Source: Minisyncoccota bacterium (GTDB lineage Bacteria; Patescibacteriota; Minisyncoccia; UBA6257; 1-14-0-10-44-23). From it: DNA of 64,000 nt. The notes beneath the pieces were generated by a model that saw only the letters and a program-made list of their open reading frames with translations, ran no database searches and was not told the DNA's origin. Location of the stretch: NCBI GenBank assembly GCA_041389085.1, contig JAWKSL010000001.1, positions 228,542-292,541 of the forward strand. Reading direction: 5' to 3'. A program made the translations under genes and the position numbers. Positions 43,216 to 53,149 of this stretch are shown here, in pieces (within the stretch, counting starts at the first letter, position 1; each line of letters starts with the position of its first letter).

Positions 43216-44100
43216 ATGAAAACACTACAGGAGGCCCTTGCATGGGCTAGTGAGAAGAAAGTAGCTATTGGGCACTTTAACGTAGCGAACATCGAAGCCC
43301 TCAAAGCTATATTTGAAGCGGCTCAGGAACTATCGACTGAAGCTGGGTTTAAAATTCCGGTAATCATTGGTCTTTCTGAGGGAGAGAGAAAGTTTGTCGG
43401 CGAGCACGCAGCAGTTGCGCTTATAAAACACATGCGCGAGCGCTACGACTACCCTATTTTCCTCAACGCTGACCACACGTATGACGATGAAATGGCGAAG
43501 GAAGCGGTACGTGCTGGATACGACAGCGTGATAATCGATGGGGCAAACCTTTCTTACGACGAAAACCTAGAAAAGACGAAGCGATTTGTAGAGTTTGCTC
43601 GCACACAAAACCCAGATTGTTTGGTAGAGGCTGAAGTTGGCTACATCGGTAGCGGGTCAAATATAAAAGAGGCTCTTCCTGAGGGTGCGGCTATAACTGA
43701 AGATACGGTAACTAAAGTTGATGAAGCGGTGCGCTTTGTAAATAAAACTGGCGTAGACTTGCTCGCTCCTGCAGTTGGGAACATTCATGGAATGCTGAAG
43801 GGGGCTAAGAACCCAAACCTTATAATTTCGCGCATTAAGGAAATAGCTGAAGCTACTGGGAAGCCACTCGTGCTTCACGGAGGAAGTGGGATTTCAGACG
43901 AAGACTTTAGTGCTGCTATCGAAGCTGGTATACGCATCGTGCACATTTCTACAGAACTTCGACGTGCATATAAAGAAGCTTTGGATGCATCTCTTGCCGC
44001 TTCCCCTTCTGAGCTTGCGCCGTACAAGATAATGGCGCCTGTAGTAGATGCTATGAAAGCTGTTGTAACAGCACGGCTTAAACTTTTTACGAATTTGTAG
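43216..44100 (+). CDS. fba: class II fructose-bisphosphate aldolase
   Basis: IGHFNVANIEALKAI...LHGGSGISDED. Confidence 0.8.
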   Translation: MKTLQEALAWASEKKVAIGHFNVANIEALKAIFEAAQELSTEAGFKIPVIIGLSEGERKFVGEHAAVALIKHMRERYDYPIFLNADHTYDDEMAKEAVRAGYDSVIIDGANLSYDENLEKTKRFVEFARTQNPDCLVEAEVGYIGSGSNIKEALPEGAAITEDTVTKVDEAVRFVNKTGVDLLAPAVGNIHGMLKGAKNPNLIISRIKEIAEATGKPLVLHGGSGISDEDFSAAIEAGIRIVHISTELRRAYKEALDASLAASPSELAPYKIMAPVVDAMKAVVTARLKLFTNL

Positions 44101-44126
44101 TTGTTACGTAGCTTGCTACGTAACAA
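44101..44126. repeat. perfect 26-bp palindrome ttgttacgtagcttgctacgtaacaa
   Basis: Same element as 2369-2398; lies just past the terminator of the minus-strand mini-gene. Confidence 0.55.
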
Positions 44127-44127
44127 G

Positions 44128-44160
44128 AAGTGAAGAGGCGCGACTCAGGGAGAGTCGCGC
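44128..44160. terminator. bidirectional terminator (fba on +, mini-gene on -)
   Basis: ggcgcgactcagggagagtcgcgcc followed by tttcg. Confidence 0.55.
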
Positions 44161-44303
44161 CTTTCGCGTGTGAGGCTGTCGCCGCTTACGAAGAAGAGAA
44201 GGGCGGCAGTGAAGGCAGCTACGAGGAGCCCGACCCACCACAGGCCAGTTCCCTTTGCGACTCCGAAACCAAGCGCAGATCCGATGATGAGGTCGCAGTG
44301 CAT
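44145..44303 (-). CDS. unannotated 52-aa hydrophobic mini-protein, GC-rich (cassette D)
   Basis: Perfect SD aggagg sits 5 nt upstream of ATG. Sequence MHCDLIIGSALGFGVAKGTGLWWVGLLVAAFTAALLFFVSGDSLTRERRDSP. A TTGACC promoter lies upstream; the stop codon is inside the terminator hairpin. Confidence 0.45.
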   Translation of the reverse strand: MHCDLIIGSALGFGVAKGTGLWWVGLLVAAFTAALLFFVSGDSLTRERRDSP

Positions 44304-44390
44304 GGGGCCTCCTTTTACTATTATTCAGCCAGCTTTTTTGCCTCTGGTCAATACTTTTAAACCTGCCGTAATTTAACTACACTAGCTTTA

Positions 44391-44837
44391 ATGATTAGTT
44401 TGATTGTTGCGATGGACAAGGAGCGATGCATTGGCAAGAACGGTTCTTTGCCGTGGCATCTTCGCGCTGATTTGCAGCGCTTAAAAGATATAACTACTGG
44501 GAACGCAATTATTATGGGGCGCGCAACTTTTGAATCGATTGGTAAGGCGCTGCCAAATCGGCAAAACATTGTTCTTACCTCTGATAAGAACTTTTCTTTT
44601 CCTGGTGTTGAGGTTGCAAATTCTCTCCAGGAGGCTTTTGGGCTTGTGGAAGATGGCCGGGAGGCAATTGTGTTTGGCGGAGCTTCTGTCTATGAAGCTG
44701 CGCTGCCGCAGGTTGCCGTCGACATCGTAACGCCAAAAGTCGAGCTATGCGAAGTGGAAACTTTTAGCATGATCAAACCAGACGTTGTTGTAATTTCTCA
44801 ATCAACAAAAGCACACGACAGGAGAAACAGTTGCTGA
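44391..44837 (+). CDS. folA: dihydrofolate reductase
   Basis: MISLIVAMDKERCIGKNGSLPWHL...TTGNAIIMGRATFESIG. Confidence 0.8.
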   Translation: MISLIVAMDKERCIGKNGSLPWHLRADLQRLKDITTGNAIIMGRATFESIGKALPNRQNIVLTSDKNFSFPGVEVANSLQEAFGLVEDGREAIVFGGASVYEAALPQVAVDIVTPKVELCEVETFSMIKPDVVVISQSTKAHDRRNSC

Positions 44838-45375
44838 TCTGGGAAGGTTTCAGGTGCTGAAGTTGCTTGTTTTCAAAACCACAAGCGACTACTTCAACAA
44901 TTGCAAAGCTTCGTCTTATGCAGATTTCTACTGCAAAGAAGTTACGGAAACACTTCCACAAAAGATGGCTCAGCTCATTGAAGAGCTGGCGGGCGGAGAA
45001 GTTTCTAAGAGCCGAAAAAAGAAATGAAAATAGTTCTTTGCTACTTGCCAGTTTTGCACGAAGAAGAATTATTATCAGTTTCAAAACCTACAAAGACACT
45101 GGTATTTGTATTCTTGGGGAAAACTTTTTTGAAGACAAGCCTCTTTCAAGGAGCATCCCCGCGCACTCGGCCTGTTTTAGCTAAAAAAGCTCTTAAAGGC
45201 TGGGCAATCTTCCCAGCAGTGCGCATAGTCGAAAAAGCCGACGTGCTAAACCTTGATAAAGAAGGGGCTCTGATAGTAATGCCAAACGATGAGTTGTGAG
45301 TGACGCGATCTTACGACTTCTGAGCTCAACTTTCCTTCGACTCTATCTTTTTGCGTTGGGATAAGCACCGCGCTA

Positions 45376-45837
45376 TGGAAATGAAACCAGTAGAAGTTGA
45401 CCAAACGCTTTCAGCTGAAGATTTCCTGCGTGGATTCTTTCAAGTTTAAAAATGAAGCAGAAGAAAAAGGCTCTAAGACATTTGGCGCCGCATTGGTGCG
45501 GCGATCGTGAAGAGACGGTGAAATTGTTTCGCAACGTACAATAAGCATGTACCAAGTGAGCACGCCCATTTAGCCTCTGGTGATCCGAAATAATTTTCAA
45601 AGGAGTTTGCGTTGAACTCTCTGTTTTTGCATGCAGAGTCTGCATGTTGCGCAGGCTGCCAAAAATGGAGTTTCTCTTGAGGGTGCAGACATGTATCTGG
45701 CGGGTGTTTCCTTGCCGCCCTGCGCTAAGGGCTGTTGCTTATTCGGGCGTAAAGACACTACTCCTGGTGGGTACAGAGTTCTCAGCAGTGCTGACATACT
45801 CAAGGCTCAAGGAGTGGAAATAATATACGTAGGCTAG
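45376..45837 (+). pseudogene. dCMP deaminase (ComEB-like) pseudogene, frameshifted
   Basis: Pieces in different frames: FGAALVRRS (VGAVIV-like), then an intact C-terminal half in-frame, ...GADMYLAGVSLPPCAKGC (PCxxC zinc motif). Confidence 0.5.
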
Positions 45838-47056
45838 ATTCGTAAATGAGAAAGGCGCGCAACACTTGCGCAGCCAATCGCGCCTTTCACGTGCTAACCG
45901 TTAGGCCTTCTTCATCCTGCCCTCGAGCAGCTGGAGCTCTTCTTGTAGTGGGCGCATGACTGCTTCAACGGCTCAGTGCTGCCGCCACGCTGAGCTCGTA
46001 AGGCGTCTCGGAAGACCTCTACGAGGCTCCTTTCTCCTCGAGCTTCTCACGGCGTCTGCCTTGAAGAGAGGCAGACGCCTCTGCGCTGCCATTCGGCACG
46101 AGCACGTTCTGTGTCACAGGTGGCGGATGGTGCCTGCGATCGAGGCGCACGGATCAGCCGAAGCGCATGAGCGAACCACCACCAGGAAGGTTGATGCCCT
46201 TGATGAACCCTCCACTCATCATCTGCCTCCGGGAAGGTGCCGATCCCTCTCCAGTGGCTCGGCTCCACCAGGGGCCGAGTCAGTCTTGTGTTCACGGGGA
46301 GCCATGACCGGTGGCGGCAGTACCCTTCGCTGGGTAGAGTTGGCCCAGAAGCTCTCCATCCGGAGTGCTCGACGAACACGCCTTGTTCTTCTCGGGGTCG
46401 AGGTTGCAGAAGGGCACTCTCCTGCCTGCAGCATGTTGCGCATGGCAACAGTACTGGGTAGCATGAAAGTACTTGCAGCGCAGCGGTCTTCATGATCCTG
46501 TGGTTGAAATTCGCAGCTCTTGGGGTGCACGAGATTATCCTCGCTGGGGTTCCTAGTTCTTGGGTTCTTCTCGGTTTTCAACTATTTTCCCCGCTGTAGT
46601 CAAGCAGCTGCACGAGTTTTTACCTTGACTGACTGGTGGTTTGGCTGAAATCTACGTTTCCTTGTAGAAGTTGTGCGTGTATGTGCTTTACACTTCGCCG
46701 GTGTATTTTGTGTTTAAAGCGGACAAATGAAGGAGCACTACTTCCCCTGTGTTGTCCTGCGAGCCACTGCCAGTGCCTTCCGAAACTCTTCAAATTCCTG
46801 GCAAGGCCAGTTCACTGATATGCTCGGCGTGTCTTTTAAAATAAGGATGAAATGATTTGCTTTGTTCCTTCGTATGGCTTGCTGGTTTTTGTCGTAAGCC
46901 AGAGTCTCCTTCTTTGAGAATTGGTTCTTTGTGGTACTTATCCTAGGCTTTCTTTACAGAAAGGGCAATTGTCGTCTTCTACTATTTGCTGCATCACTTT
47001 TTTCTGCTCGTCGATGCGTGAATTTCAAATCTGCAAGTGTTTCTTTCGCTCATATT

Positions 47057-47507
47057 CTACAAGCAATAATTGTATTGGTTGGTTTCATCTGACTGATGGC
47101 ACTCTCTACTACTTTCTTGCCATTCACTCTCTTTTACTTCTGAGAAAAACTCATCGCCTTCTATTTCGCAGTCTACTTCGGTAGCTGGAACGTTTTATCC
47201 TACTCGGAAGAGCTTCTTTATATGCCTGCTCCGCCAAAAATGAATGGTTTTTGCCTTCCTCTACTTTTGTCAGGGCTTATCAGGCTGTGGGCGGCAAATA
47301 TCTGGGGCAGCAAATGCTTTGTCTGAAGTTGAGTACGATGTTTGTCTGTTTGGGAGCGCTTTGCCGATGGACTCCATTTTTTGCGTCCCATGATGGTGCA
47401 TTTCCTGTTGTGAGTTCTTTTACTCTTTGCATGTCACTTTTAGACGCAAGGTACTTGCCAGCTCCAATGCAGCGGTTTTTTGAGTATGCAACGATAAGAT
47501 AGAGCAT
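47057..47507 (-). pseudogene. second dihydrofolate reductase copy, pseudogene (inverted relative to intact folA)
   Basis: Pieces in different frames: LMLYLIVAYSKNRCIG...TTGNA...; PFIFGGAGIYKEALP; GDEFFSEVKESEWQESS...NYCL. Confidence 0.55.
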
Positions 47508-47617
47508 TAAATTGCTACTGGAATGTCTTTTATTCCTGGGTGTGGGTTGTGGTCGGTAGCTCAAAGTCGTCTTTTCTAAACTTAACAAATCGGTATTGTC
47601 GAGTGCCAGTTTGTTAT

Positions 47618-48368
47618 TTACAGTGGGCGCCCTCGCTCAAGCATTTGCTGCAACATCTTGGTCATATATGTGCGTCTGAAAAGCTGTGCAAATTCGCGGA
47701 ATATTTGTAAGCTTTGCGAAGCATCATTAGGGCGCATACTGCACCATGTTGCTTGGCACTCCGACTGGCACGTCGGCACTTCTTTGTATCATGTGCCGTC
47801 AAAAACACCGTCCTGCGGTAACGTGTGTACCCAGCCGTGACAAAGGACAAATTGCGCTTTTTGTGTCTTCCCCTCTCCCCTTCCAGTGTTGGGAGCCTGC
47901 AGGTTACAAAGTGAGTTCTTAGGGTGTGGAAATTCTTTTATCTGCTCAGCAACATAGCAGACAGTTATAGATCACCAGCAACTAGAAGACGGAGTATTGA
48001 ATGCTGCTCCGTGTGAGCCAGGGCCCAAATCTCCTGTTTCGATCACTTTTTGCGCCTCTTCCGTTGCCCATGGTCCCCACCAACCGTAGCTTTCAATTTC
48101 TTCTAGCGTTCTCGCTCCATTTATAAAAGCAATAATCTCGGCAATTGCTTGCTTCCATATAGTTACCGGCAATCGATCTGACTCTTTTGGGTATGTTGCT
48201 TTCATTGATGATTGGAAACCCGTTTCTAGTTTGAAGTGGAGGGATCGTGGTCCGATCCGGTAATAGCATCTACTCCTTGTTGTTTTCACGAATAGTTCCC
48301 TTGTCGAGAATTTCTTGAAGGAGCTCTTTATATTGTGTATCCGGGGTCCTTTGATCGATTGGGTTCAT
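47618..48368 (-). pseudogene. thyA: thymidylate synthase ThyA pseudogene (frameshifts, stops and substitutions)
   Basis: Pieces in different frames: MNPIDQRTPDTQYKELLQEILDKGT; RSLHFKLETGF...IWKQAIAEI...EEIESYGWWGPWATEE...GDLGP; YQRSADVPVGVPSNMVQYAP; ALMML; SDAHI; QQMLERGRPL. Confidence 0.6.
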
Positions 48369-48454
48369 GCTTTTGGGTGGGTTATTTTCTTAGTATATCA
48401 GTAGCTCTGGCCAATAAACTCTTGCCGGTAGAGCTTCTGGTATTCTCAGCTTCT

Positions 48455-49122
48455 ATGAAAGTAGAACTACAAAGCCAGCGTACGCGACATTTTGGAGTCG
48501 CAAGGTTGAGACACTTCGCTCTGAGGGCCTTATTCCTGCTGAGCTATATGGAAATGAAATTGAAAACCAGCACCTTAGTGTTGATGCAAAGAGCTTTAAC
48601 AAAGCTTTCGACCGAGCTGGAGAAAACACACGCAGACTATGCCATTGATGGAAGGTTTTGCCGGTGCTGCCCGCTGTACAGACCCACTACCTTAGTGGTG
48701 ACGTTATCGCTATCGACTTCTACGCGCCAAACTTGAAGAGGCGAAGAAGTTACTGTTTCTGTGCCAATAGTATTTAAAGGTGAGAGCCCTGCAGTAAAGG
48801 GAGGAGATGGATCTTCGTGCCTTCACTCGAAGAGCTCGAAGTTGAGTGTTTGCCTACCGCAATCCCTCACGAGTTTGAAGTAGACATTTCTTCACTCGCT
48901 AAAGTTGGAGACTCAATTCTTGTAAAAGATATTGCTGTTCCAGCTGGGGTAAAGGTAGCTGTTGAAGGCGAAACCTCAGTAGCAAGTATCGCTGCAAAGA
49001 TGACTGAAGAGGAAGACGCAGCTATGAGTGCTGAAGCGGACGTTGCAGCAGTGTCTGTAGAGGGAGAAAAGAAGGAAGACGAAGCTGCTGAAGGAGCTGA
49101 AAGCGCTGAAGCTTCTGAGTAA
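48455..49122 (+). pseudogene. rplY: ribosomal protein L25/Ctc with at least four frameshifts; every segment is still well conserved
   Basis: Segments in different frames: MKVELQSQRT | TFWSRKVETLRSEGLIPAELYGNEIENQHLSVDAKSFNKAFDRAGENT | ADYAIDG | KVLPVLPAVQTHYLSGDVIAIDFYAPNL | TVSVPIVFKGESPAVKGGDG | LEELEVECLPTAIPHEFEVDISSL... Confidence 0.6.
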
Positions 49123-49186
49123 GAAGAATCTCATATATACGTTTTAGAAAGACCCGCTGTCCATTCTTCATGTTATAATTTCTCTT

Positions 49187-50634
49187 ATGAGCGAGGAAAC
49201 CGCGTACATATTTTTGGATGTAAAAAGTGAGAGATTGCACAGTTTTTCTAACCGCGATAGGCAGGTTGCTCTTTCGGGTTCATATACTCACTCTCGTGTG
49301 TTTGGATTTGTGAAGTTTGCTGCGGTTCTCGTGGTTATTTTGACCTTTGTGCTTGGCTTCGCTATCGCCCCTCAGGGTTCTGAGAAGAGCCTGGCAGTTG
49401 CGGCAAATAAAACGAGCGAGCGAGCCGACCTTGAAAAGGAGCTTGCTGAGCTTGAAGCTCAAATGAAGGTGTATTCGGCTCAGGCTGCTCAGTATCGACA
49501 CCAAGGAAACACTCTTCAGAGCGAAATAGACAGGCTTGATGGGCAAATAGCTCAACTCGAGCGTCAGATCCGCACGATCACTCTTACCCTTGATAAGCTA
49601 AGCGATGAAATAGTGGAGACTGAAAGCACTATTATCACCACAGAAGAGCGCCTCGACCAAGCGCGCAGCGCGGTAGCAAACACGCTTCAGTACGTATACG
49701 AAAGATCAAAGAGAGCTTGGTAGCTGTGTTGCTTAAGAACCAAACTTAGAGCTTCTTCTCTGAAGTAAATGATTTGCTTGATGTGCAGGGCACTCTTTCA
49801 AACAAGATAAAGGAAATGACCAACCTTAGGGATAATCTTCTTGAAGAAAAGGAGCTTCTTGCGCTTCAGAAGGATGATGCGATAAGGCTTGCGCAGTTTC
49901 AGGCTGAGCAAAAAAAGTCTGTGTTGAGCACGAAGAGTCAGAAAGACGTTATTCTTGAGGAAACTCGCGGCAAAGAGGCTACCTACCAAGACCTTTATGT
50001 AAAAACTAAGCAGAGTGCAGACGAAATTCGATCAAGAATATTCCGTCTTCTTGGCGGAGGAGAGATGACCTTCGAACAGGCGTACAATTATGCCAAATAT
50101 TCAAATGGCCTCACTGGTATTCGCCCAGCGTTTCTTCTTGCGATTCTTCAGCAAGAGAGCGCGCTCGGAAAGAACGTAGGAAAGTGTAACTATCGAGACG
50201 CCATGGCTCCTGGCCCTCCAACGTCTCGTCGCGATGACATAACTCCATTTTTGCAGATCACGGCTGAGCTCGGTTTAGACCCTGACCAGACGCTTGTTTC
50301 TTGCGCTATCTCTACAGACGGTGCTTACGGAGGAGCTATGGGCCCAAGCCAATTTATTCCTACTACCTGGATGTACTACAAGGATAGAGTTTCAAAGCTT
50401 ACTGGCAACAGCCCCGCTAGCCCATGGAACAATGGAGACGCTTTCGTAGCTACTGGGCTTTACCTGTCTGATGCTATGAACTCATGCTCTCAATACAGCG
50501 GTACTGACCAAGAGCGTTGTGCCGCCGCCCGTTACTACGCAGGAGGAAACTGGCAAACCCACCTTTGGACTTATGGAGAGCGCGTAATAGCTCGAGCGGC
50601 TCAATTTGAGGCTGACATTGAGATAATCCGCTAG
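49187..50634 (+). pseudogene. coiled-coil + SLT_2/MltB-like lytic transglycosylase, split by frameshifts near 49720-49775
   Basis: The 49187 ORF (coiled coil) and the 49774 ORF (…GAMGPSQFIPTTW lytic-transglycosylase motif) are joined by an intermediate frame reading RKIKESLVAVLLKNQ. Confidence 0.5.
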
Positions 50635-52491: not shown

Positions 52492-52902
52492 TTAGCCTTT
52501 TACGGCAGTGATGCAGTCGAGTACCGTCTGGTAGTGTTCTTGGAAAATAAGATAGTGTGTTTCTACTTTCTCAGGGTTTCCGATGAGAATAGTTTTTTTA
52601 CCAAGAGCAAATGCCATTCCTGCTTCGATATGTGAACTGTTTCCTGCTGGGAGCAACATGATAAACACGTCGCTTTCCCTTAAGCCTTCAAGATCTTGCT
52701 CGTAGAGCTGGCGAATTTCAGCGTCGCTCTTCCAGTCTTTGTTTTTAAACTTTTCTTGATCGTCTTTGAGTTCGCTTTCCGGTACGAAGTTTCGCTTATC
52801 GCTTACATAGGAGAATACTTCGTTCCCAAGGGCACTCAGGTTTTCTGTAAGGAGCTGGACTTGTTTCATGTTTTTCCAGCTGCTGGCTATGAAATATTTC
52901 AT
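52492..52902 (-). CDS. nucleoside 2-deoxyribosyltransferase-like / YtoQ-like protein (136 aa)
   Basis: …VFIMLLPAGNSSHIEAGMAFALGKKTILIG… The ORF-track N-terminal Q-rich extension (to 53115) is the antisense reading of the next gene and is rejected. Confidence 0.4.
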   Translation of the reverse strand: MKYFIASSWKNMKQVQLLTENLSALGNEVFSYVSDKRNFVPESELKDDQEKFKNKDWKSDAEIRQLYEQDLEGLRESDVFIMLLPAGNSSHIEAGMAFALGKKTILIGNPEKVETHYLIFQEHYQTVLDCITAVKG

Positions 52903-52945
52903 ACCCTTAAGGATAGCAAATATAGGGCCTGGCCGGCTATAAAGT

Positions 52946-52968
52946 AAAACCCCCCTTTCGGGGGGTTC
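52946..52968 (-). terminator. terminator of the acidic mini-protein gene
   Basis: Hairpin aacccccctttcggggggtt followed by a T-run on the minus strand. Confidence 0.55.
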
Positions 52969-52972
52969 TGAT

Positions 52973-53149
52973 TTACATTGCTGCTGGTGTTTCTCCCTCT
53001 TGTGGAGCTTCTGGTGCAGCTGCTGGCATTTCTGCTGGCGCAGCATCTCCTCCTTCTGCTGGAGCTGCTGGTTCAGCTGCTGGCATTGCTGGTGCTGGAG
53101 TTGCGTTATCGTCACCTCCCATACCAGGGTTCATGTTTTGGTCGTCCAT
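52973..53149 (-). CDS. 58-aa acidic P/A/E-rich (disordered-type) mini-protein
   Basis: MDDQNMNPGMGGDDNATPAPAMPAAEPAAPAEGGDAAPAEMPAAAPEAPQEGETPAAM; internal DNA repeats (cagctgctggcatt x2); own terminator; lies 77 nt downstream of the ATP-grasp gene. Confidence 0.45.
   Translation of the reverse strand: MDDQNMNPGMGGDDNATPAPAMPAAEPAAPAEGGDAAPAEMPAAAPEAPQEGETPAAM

Follow-up and report, generated by a model that had tools for sequence, protein, structure and literature searches.

Gene content of the block

The DNA analysed here, a 64,000-nucleotide stretch (hereafter the window) of a 312,629-bp contig in the GenBank MAG of a Minisyncoccota bacterium (Paceibacteria, CPR; locus tags R3B52_), is densely coded, with open reading frames (ORFs) of typically ~300 aa, except in one block at positions 44716-49750. 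Within 44838-49773 the longest ORF reaches at most 179 aa, and a coding-potential profile finds no other low-coding run of more than ~1 kb in the window. Homopolymers are depleted in the block, but too slightly to be decisive. At its left edge lies the 5' part of a native folA gene (44391-44715, + strand, codons 1-108), with which the base-perfect native sequence ends at the left junction. This part is fused in frame to an aberrant tail resembling a DHFR C-terminus (44716-44837, + strand), in which the EGDxFFP motif is degenerate; the resulting 148-aa protein is annotated in GenBank and is identical to P0121 at NCBI. The Pfam DHFR profile matches the ORF (44391-44837) only at positions 1-114 of 159, leaving its last third aberrant, and alignment to its nearest homologues (P0122 and P0123, 160 aa each) is limited to residues 1-114.

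A 91-aa ORF follows (45024-45299, + strand; MEZ4156648.1, R3B52_01540), annotated as a hypothetical protein according to an exact look-up. Among 1.84 billion representatives it retrieves only itself and two spurious repeat matches, and it has no Pfam match. The next recognizable feature, a dCMP-deaminase-like remnant (45466-45837, + strand), spans three reading frames and is visible only when these are stitched together. The stitched protein matches the T4 dCMP deaminase (PDB 1vq2, E=6.5e-6), gives a Pfam match under the cut-off, and is identical to the native dCMP deaminase at 34 of 88 residues with four frame jumps. Beyond it, ~1.17 kb (45890-47057) cannot be assigned. Its GC-rich core (45900-46500, 58-62% GC) contains a perfect 10-bp hairpin at 46051-46079. 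Six-frame scans of 45880-47060 return no Pfam or NCBIfam match, a 1,963-aa six-frame concatenate of the same interval has no match among 5.8 billion proteins, and 45890-47057 shows no 3-base periodicity, although neither this measure nor GC3 was informative. A structured non-coding RNA was considered for the GC-rich stretch and gained no support: there is no Rfam family, only a sub-threshold palindrome match on both strands, and the fold z-score relative to shuffled controls is about -2.2 on both strands.

Two overlapping genes on the opposite strand complete the unfamiliar part of the block. The first, folA' (47057-47507, - strand), is homologous to the native folA but frameshifted and diverged; its Pfam DHFR match improves from 8.9e-9 in a single frame to 4.7e-26 when stitched. 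Its product is 49% identical to the same-strain FolA across 8-10 frame jumps, and local +1/-1 pairs, read directly from the sequence, recover the exact native peptide QNIVLTSDK. The peptide ESIGKALPNRQ is also common to both genes, and its codons differ at 9 of 11 positions. A recent inverted duplication of folA is thus ruled out, as the two genes share no DNA similarity and use different codons. Even when stitched, folA' scores 92 bits against the profile, compared with 182 bits in intact relatives. The second gene, thyA' (47507-48368, - strand), is a heavily degenerate thymidylate-synthase homologue whose stop codon overlaps the start codon of folA', as in real operons. Its stitched match to PF00303 reaches 72 bits versus 167 bits for an intact relative, with 8-14 frame jumps, and it is 37% identical to the native ThyA-like protein, with a KK(K/R)N motif in both. 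A 105-aa in-frame piece of thyA' has no PDB match; it is colinear with ThyA but highly substituted, an appearance that fits genuine divergence or decay better than noise from indels. Frame jumps occur in folA' and thyA' at 1-2 per 100 nt, a density similar to that of the rplY patch with proven lesions described below.

To the right, native sequence resumes with the upstream region and gene of rplY (48426-49122, + strand; ATG at 48455), in which Pfam L25p and TL5_C domains are matched over 48455-49122, followed by a terminator hairpin (49140-49170, + strand) and a gene for a coiled-coil lytic transglycosylase (49187-50634, + strand) split into ORFs of 178 aa (49187-49723) and 286 aa (49774-50634). 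The initial annotation had named rplY, thyA, a second folA, dCMP deaminase and the transglycosylase, and all are located here by Pfam or PDB matches and split ORFs. Its description of a block in which nearly all genes are broken also holds. The limits it gave, 44850-49780, shift to 44716-49750, the start being earlier because the 3' third of the first folA is aberrant; that same damage speaks against its view that the flanks are intact. The 1.1-kb GC-rich stretch it reported as lacking coding signal is indeed unassignable, over ~1.17 kb, while the GC-rich portion itself amounts to only ~600 bp.

The segment at 44716-48425 and its site in related contigs

The deposited sequence can be compared with Logan assemblies from SRA runs, whose source samples may differ from that of the MAG. 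Same-strain contigs from two such runs carry an intact island of folA, thyA-like, dcd, dCMP deaminase, tmk and rplY genes. One of them, L012 (1,208 nt; SRR28338161), is 100.0% identical to window positions 43508-44715, and another, L013 (544 nt; SRR26387399), is 100.0% identical to 44172-44715. Both matches stop exactly at 44715, beyond which the contigs complete folA with an intact 3' end and enter a ThyA-like gene, both missing from the window. In three contigs of relatives (L014-L016, 89-94% nucleotide identity) the genes are intact and run ald, folA, thyA, dcd, dCMP deaminase, tmk, rplY, transglycosylase; the similarity of these contigs to the window likewise ends exactly at 44715, resuming at 48426-48428. 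Exact-protein look-ups of four flanking genes, P0001 and P0244 gave no match in the contig index, and no literature was found on runs SRR26387399 and SRR28338161 or on the locus-tag prefix R3B52_.

The window therefore holds a non-native segment of 3,710 bp (44716-48425) in place of a 3,086-bp resident island comprising the folA 3' end and the thyA-like, dcd, dCMP deaminase and tmk genes. No similarity between the segment and L012, L014 or L015 is detected by blastn (word size 7) or nhmmer, even when sequences are reversed or complemented, which rules out that the segment is the native island in noisy, reversed, complemented or inverted form. Frameshift-tolerant alignment finds no dcd, tmk or NDT in the segment above a reversed-sequence null, and tmk is absent from the window altogether. 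Both junctions are sharp, ruling out a gradual fade of similarity, and the right one has ~5-6 nt of microhomology (CTTGCC). The initial annotation had taken thyA and folA' for resident genes in old decay. This cannot be upheld, as the 3.7-kb segment is absent from contigs of the same strain and close relatives, which hold a different, intact island. The comparison of orthologous loci that it proposed bears out DNA orthology for rplY and the transglycosylase and denies it for 44716-48425. Judged by sequence comparison, the window lacks the resident island altogether and does not hold it in decayed form.

The site itself varies. Between the aldolase gene and rplY, thyX-tmk is found in one relative (L001), another set of folA, thyA, dcd, dCMP deaminase and NDT in a second (L003), and nothing in seven loci, so that the sharp junctions fall at a site variable among relatives. 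Thymidylate-synthesis genes have a hotspot at the aldolase-rplY junction, with contents that vary by strain and lineage. The segment scores low under the native codon model. It has no DNA match in plasmids, phages or E. coli genomes, its hairpin pattern was not found in JGI metagenomes, and its ORFs occur in no protein cluster outside the NCBI MAG, none of the independent datasets searched carrying the block allele. Searches near the block revealed no tRNA and no integrase or transposase match, and no direct or inverted repeats flanking it.

What the segment does contain is frameshifted, strongly diverged homologues of the resident-island families (the DHFR tail, the dCMP deaminase remnant, folA' and thyA'), together with ~1.8 kb lacking a homologue in any collection searched, for which error alone is an insufficient explanation. 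With its synonymous codon differences, thyA'/folA' stop/start overlap and perfect hairpins, the segment looks like real DNA from some organism, and a real variant allele therefore probably underlies it.

Lesions in rplY, its terminator and the transglycosylase gene

Right of the segment, the damage can be read against a same-strain reference. Contig L017 comes from the run that also yielded L013; over window positions 48426-49158 it matches perfectly except for 19 clustered events. Approximately 11 substitutions and 7 indels are found in 341 nt of rplY, and 14 events lie inside 58 nt (48614-48671: 11 substitutions plus deletions of 2, 1 and 3 nt). The others in rplY are +A at 48471, +A at 48496, +AGAG at 48737 and -A at 48811. 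Relative to this reference the frame shifts at 48471, 48496, 48632, 48652, 48737 and 48811. Half of the indels (4 of 8) are one-base changes in homopolymer length. For comparison, natural divergence in the left flank consists mostly of substitutions (173 in 3 kb), with gaps only in alignment-paired form. Once its frame is corrected, the TL5_C domain of rplY scores 82 bits versus 79-89 in intact relatives; as this score is undiminished, rplY is free of background substitution decay. Intact L25 proteins are encoded by a second contig of the MAG (P0252) and by Logan contigs (P0253, P0251). This second contig, of 1,162 bp, encodes an intact L25 (MEZ4157026.1) and an intact transglycosylase N-terminus (MEZ4157025.1), and differs at two L25 residues from the main contig and L017.

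The lesions also strike conserved features beyond rplY, including the terminator stem and the transglycosylase NLSDFF motif. The terminator reads GGGCCCGC-TTGC-GCGGGCCC in L015 and GACCCGCTGTCCATTC in the window, which amounts to -G and G>A relative to L017 and to -6/+3 relative to L015. In the transglycosylase gene, +1 and +2 indels at 49195 and 49205 turn MSEKPR into MSEETAY (compared with L015 and the MAG's own P0244), and a -1 change is located around 49706-49711. Further on, the position of a conserved Leu is taken by an in-frame TAG (49747-49749) and NLSDFF lacks a conserved Asp codon; from 49774 on the gene is clean. Lesions occur only on this side of the non-native segment, the left flank being perfect. 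That 4,096 nt separate 44716 from the final lesion in rplY (48811) is taken as coincidence, since proven lesions go on at 49151-49205 and ~49708-49750.

Frameshifts had been placed in the initial annotation at roughly 48480, 48640, 48700 and 48790. The breaks in rplY are real, and L017 re-sets their places to 48471-48811. For rplY and the transglycosylase it had offered local error, in sequencing or in assembly, as one possibility, and this is supported by L017 and by the intact second contig of the MAG.

Origin of the block and comparison with known systems

The deposited sequence does contain this series of broken genes, which is most likely an assembly or consensus error. Because independent same-strain contigs carry intact genes at the site, the block is no evidence of gene decay in the organism. 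Rather than biological decay of resident genes, it probably reflects a non-native path of low fidelity that the assembly took at the strain-variable hotspot. The MAG conflicts here with independent same-strain assemblies amid otherwise identical sequence, its bin holds a redundant intact copy in the 1,162-bp contig, and its lesions are indel-rich, clustered and error-like. At the hotspot, the assembly would have taken a path unsupported by the dominant strain. A candidate origin of that path is a variant or related genome with a different island, brought in through a noisy long read or by gap filling. Having no counterpart in the dominant strain, 44716-48425 would have escaped correction and would carry raw-read-like errors atop genuinely different thyA-folA and dCMP-deaminase genes. 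The stretch from 48426 to ~49750, common to the dominant strain, would have been mostly corrected to a perfect match with clusters of indels and substitutions left over. The technical cause would lie in the platform or in the assembly, gap-filling or polishing history, and the variability of the locus is probably why assembly failed.

A genuine strain-specific allele, in which horizontal transfer swapped the resident thymidylate island for an already decayed one from a more distant relative and rplY and the transglycosylase were truly inactivated, would account for the sharp junctions with their CTTGCC microhomology, the variability of the site, the foreign codon score and GC-rich core, and the presence of true diverged homologues with synonymous differences in an operon-like layout. 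It is nonetheless unlikely. Over 1,208 nt to the left, and between the lesions to the right, the flanks agree with the intact allele base for base, whereas rplY has 19 changes in 341 nt at a substitution-to-indel ratio near 1.6:1. Gradual or single-event mutational processes are not known to yield such a clustered pattern. Such an allele would also entail the loss of conserved genes, with tmk missing from the window, and it appears in no independent assembly and is accompanied by neither mobility genes nor flanking repeats in the searches above. It is distinctly improbable that the block is the true allele of a co-occurring strain in which recombination exchanged the whole de novo dTMP-synthesis island (folA 3' end, thyA, dcd, dCMP deaminase, tmk) for a dead xenologous one and simultaneously inactivated rplY and a conserved cell-wall transglycosylase. 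If true, the block would capture a CPR episymbiont in the midst of abrupt, localised gene loss, with an unexplained mutation shower beside the junction.

Single-base insertions at 48471 and 48496, as well as +AGAG and -A, sit in otherwise identical sequence instead of in tracts of a divergent allele. They make it quite doubtful that the block is a chimeric graph path free of read noise, in which the segment and lesion patches are the accurate sequence of a second, more divergent population, spliced into the contig of the dominant strain, and switching out of register between the two causes part of the breakage. At least two haplotypes are present in the sample, given the two residues at which the L25 of the 1,162-bp contig differs, and in a shifted frame 48614-48671 encodes HADYAIDGR, similar to the native LVDLTVDGK and with the look of a divergent allele. 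A functional donor allele could not, however, hold such frame offsets across 100%-identical stretches, and the genes of the segment would remain pseudogenes in the donor. In-situ decay, with the organism's own thymidylate genes as old pseudogenes, is scarcely tenable. The low scores of thyA' and folA' even after frame correction fit it; the resident genes, however, as known from same-strain contigs, have the reverse orientation, another order and unrelated DNA, identical peptides are written in different codons, and on the left 100% identity holds until it breaks off sharply. Orthology extends only to rplY and the transglycosylase, and in the comparison with L017 all changes are clustered and the rest is identical, instead of showing an even spread of substitutions. 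The lesions are not seen in independent samples, and L012, L013, L017 and the MAG's second contig are intact.

The main value of reading the block as an assembly artefact is quality control. Taken at face value, the MAG describes a Paceibacteria lineage without thymidylate synthase, tmk, L25 and a conserved transglycosylase, all of which are intact in independent same-strain data. In GenBank, the block has given rise to a chimeric 'dihydrofolate reductase' of 148 aa as well as to several 'proteins' that are fragments. A modest biological point survives, namely an aldolase-rplY hotspot with alternative modules by lineage: none, thyX-tmk, or folA-thyA-dcd-dCMP deaminase with tmk or NDT.

Indel-rich consensus errors in long-read and hybrid (meta)genome assemblies are described as truncating genes (proovframe preprint, 10.1101/2021.08.23.457338; Sereika et al. 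2022, PMC9262707). The block resembles these in its clean frame jumps in conserved genes, its roughly equal indels and substitutions, its persistence where polishing reads cannot align, and the recovery of an intact version from other data. Instead of being scattered, the errors of the block are confined to one ~5-kb locus adjoining 3.7 kb of different sequence, not a noisy copy, and only half of the indels are in homopolymers. In MAGs, assemblies commonly break or are misjoined at flexible, strain-variable genomic islands in conserved hotspots. The differing thymidylate modules at aldolase-rplY, the sharp junctions and the redundant short contig in the bin are all in keeping with such islands, whereas the block is without integrase, tRNA or flanking repeats and the window's island genes are broken where those of relatives are intact. 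In reductive evolution, as in Mycobacterium leprae and recent symbionts, pseudogenes are scattered, substitution-dominated and DNA-orthologous to intact relatives. The block shares with them frameshifts and stops in recognisable genes, but its breakage is local, indel-rich and partly non-orthologous. Finally, thyA-folA operons and thyX are alternative modules for thymidylate synthesis. As its sequence stands, the window's pair is non-functional, and it is inverted with respect to the native island (thyA then folA, as opposed to folA then thyA); it nevertheless retains the stop/start overlap of a thyA-folA operon, at a site where relatives carry thyX-tmk or folA-thyA-dcd-dCMP deaminase-tmk.

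Bounds and content of the broken block

The initial annotation placed a localized block of interrupted genes at 44850-49780 and read it as a mixture of old decay and of very recent indels or local error. Such a block is present, with no open reading frame (ORF) longer than 179 aa between ~44838 and 49773 and dense coding over the rest of the 64 kb, although its limits are better set at 44716 and ~49750. Searches of six-frame and stitched translations against Pfam, NCBIfam and the PDB bear out the named genes: rplY and a weak dCMP-deaminase-like remnant lie on the + strand, thyA' and folA' (primes denote broken homologues) lie on the - strand, and the gene for a coiled-coil lytic transglycosylase is split in two. 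Of the 1.1-kb uncoded GC-rich stretch also described, an unmatched ~1.17 kb (45890-47057) holds up, for which neither the frames searched nor Rfam gave a match, but 58-62% GC is confined to a 600-bp core. A perfect 10-bp palindromic hairpin in this stretch (46051-46079) resembles a viral frameshift element in Rfam below threshold, but the resemblance, seen on both strands, is a palindrome artefact.

The window is part of a 312,629-bp contig of a Paceibacteria (Parcubacteria/CPR) metagenome-assembled genome (MAG) in GenBank. ORFs from the block region are identical to the GenBank proteins MEZ4156648.1, MEZ4156650.1, MEZ4156651.1 and MEZ4156652.1 (locus tags R3B52_01540 to _01560), and the 148-aa folA ORF at 44391-44837 to P0121, an NCBI dihydrofolate reductase (DHFR) from the same contig. 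This chimeric ORF is labelled 'dihydrofolate reductase' in GenBank, where the L25 and transglycosylase pieces stand as separate hypothetical proteins without a pseudogene flag.

The foreign segment and the aldolase-rplY junction

The 148-aa folA, intact in appearance, matches the DHFR profile over positions 1-114 of 159 only, and alignment to its nearest homologues, 160-aa proteins from Logan assemblies, is confined to the same 114 residues. Two same-strain contigs, L012 (SRR28338161) and L013 (SRR26387399), match the window at 100.0% identity for 1,208 and 544 nt, respectively; both matches end exactly at 44715/44716, mid-folA, beyond which the contigs complete folA with a regular 3' end and go on to a ThyA-like gene that is intact. 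Three relatives at 89-94% identity (L014-L016) carry, all on the + strand, ald, a 52-aa ORF, folA, thyA-like, dcd, dCMP deaminase, tmk, rplY and the transglycosylase gene, and their similarity to the window stops at 44715 and returns at 48426-48428, the end of tmk. The window's own 52-aa ORF (44145-44303, - strand), between the aldolase gene and folA, is hydrophobic with a strong native coding score; L014 likewise has a 52-aa gene call at the equivalent position.

Between these limits, 3,710 bp (44716-48425) take the place of 3,086 bp in the native island, and blastn (word size 7) and nhmmer detect no similarity between the two, nor do reverse-only and complement-only transforms resemble the native island; chunk-wise alignment adjoining either junction likewise found no similarity. 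The native island is intact in same-strain and related contigs and the segment is dissimilar to it, so neither thyA' and folA', for which the initial annotation suggested old decay, nor the deaminase remnant can be decaying resident genes; in situ decay is contradicted and merits almost no credence. The resident island is simply absent from the window's contig.

Frameshift-tolerant alignment to the native island proteins identifies the recognisable pieces as diverged homologues of the same gene families. folA' has 49% identity to the same-strain FolA, with 8-10 frame jumps; thyA' has 37% identity to the native ThyA-like protein, with a common KK(K/R)N motif; and the deaminase remnant has 39% identity to the native dCMP deaminase. 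The peptide ESIGKALPNRQ is identical in native and foreign versions and is encoded with different codons at 9 of 11 positions; the foreign genes are not noisy copies of the native ones. The stop codon of thyA' and the start codon of folA' overlap, as they do in real operons, and the segment's first 122 nt extend folA in frame into a degenerate DHFR C-terminus. Correcting the frames still leaves thyA' at 72 bits and folA' at 92, where intact relatives reach 167 and 182, respectively; a 105-aa in-frame, highly substituted piece of thyA' has no PDB match. Neither dcd nor tmk is detectable, and for the remaining ~1.8 kb, which includes an annotated 91-aa ORF, searches of 5.8 billion proteins and of 1.84 billion representatives gave no homologue.

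The aldolase gene is followed directly by rplY and the transglycosylase gene in seven of 11 more distant relatives. One relative has thyX-tmk inserted at this junction (L001, 6292-8547), another folA (- strand), thyA-like, dcd, dCMP deaminase and deoxyribosyltransferase genes (L003, 5222-8599), and the closest relatives folA, thyA-like, dcd, dCMP deaminase and tmk (L015, 1599-5013; window counterpart 44100-48455). Since different modules occupy it among relatives, the fructose-bisphosphate aldolase-rplY junction is a hotspot for thymidylate-synthesis modules in this Paceibacteria lineage. Near the hotspot, just downstream of recA, lies a further nucleotide-salvage gene (52492-53115, - strand), encoding a protein that resembles nucleoside 2-deoxyribosyltransferase and has a long, low-complexity N-terminal extension rich in Q, H and K.

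Lesions in rplY and the transglycosylase gene

The same-strain contig L017, from the same run as L013, spans the tmk 3' end and rplY and is identical to window 48426-49158 outside the following events: +A at 48471 and at 48496, 11 substitutions plus indels of -2, -1 and -3 within 48614-48671, +AGAG at 48737, -A at 48811, and -G and G>A in the terminator stem (49151-49152). Relative to L015 and to P0244, a protein from the second contig (1,162 bp) of the same MAG, indels of +1 at 49195 and +2 at 49205 turn the transglycosylase N-terminus from MSEKPR into MSEETAY. Its frame then shifts by -1 near 49706-49711, an in-frame TAG (49747-49749) replaces a conserved Leu, and the NLSDFF motif lacks its conserved Asp codon; the sequence is clean from 49774 on.

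The suspicion of error in these two genes is supported by the clustered, indel-rich lesions, seen in rplY relative to L017, and by the 1,162-bp contig, which encodes both an intact L25 (P0252, MEZ4157026.1) and the intact transglycosylase N-terminus. The rplY lesions, with a substitution-to-indel ratio of ~1.6:1, are tightly clustered in a sequence that otherwise matches the intact same-strain copy base for base, whereas natural divergence in the neighbouring 4.6 kb consists mostly of substitutions. The frame-corrected L25 TL5_C domain scores on par with intact relatives.

Two C-terminal residues (AVEGSES versus AAEGAES) distinguish the L25 of the 1,162-bp contig (MEZ4157025.1, MEZ4157026.1) from that of both the window and L017, implying that the bin mixes at least two closely related haplotypes. 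L017 itself has one extra A at ~975-980 (A5 versus A4; window 48924) that puts the end of its own predicted L25 (P0253) out of frame, a hint that run SRR26387399 may contain homopolymer-error-prone reads.

Origin of the block

The block is probably an artefact of assembly or consensus, for which we infer a technical cause. Accurate dominant-strain reads would have corrected an error-prone backbone wherever they aligned, and errors would have stayed elsewhere. The 3.7 kb next to it would come from a variant strain or a related genome with a truly different island and would have kept a fidelity like that of raw reads. Such fidelity is consistent with the segment's 1-2 frame jumps per 100 nt, a density close to that of the proven rplY patch, and with closely spaced +1 and -1 shifts in folA' that cancel out to give the native peptide QNIVLTSDK, as read from the sequence.

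Against an artefact stand the real-DNA features of the foreign segment, the 105-aa thyA' piece that is in frame yet highly substituted, and the restriction of lesions to the segment's right side. A genuine replacement specific to this strain, in which rplY and the transglycosylase gene would really be inactivated, is nevertheless unlikely: gradual decay would spread substitutions over the flanks, and we know of no single mutational event that gives ~5% change in patches. Slightly less likely again is a chimeric path, free of read noise, that joins two populations occurring together, although the bin does mix haplotypes. An assembly or consensus artefact remains the best explanation. Biological novelty is low, and the useful outcomes are the flagging of a mis-assembled locus and of the spurious GenBank proteins derived from it, and the recognition of the aldolase-rplY junction as a hotspot for thymidylate modules. 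Frameshift-rich consensus is described as a known problem of long-read metagenome assemblies in two reports (10.1101/2021.08.23.457338; PMC9262707).
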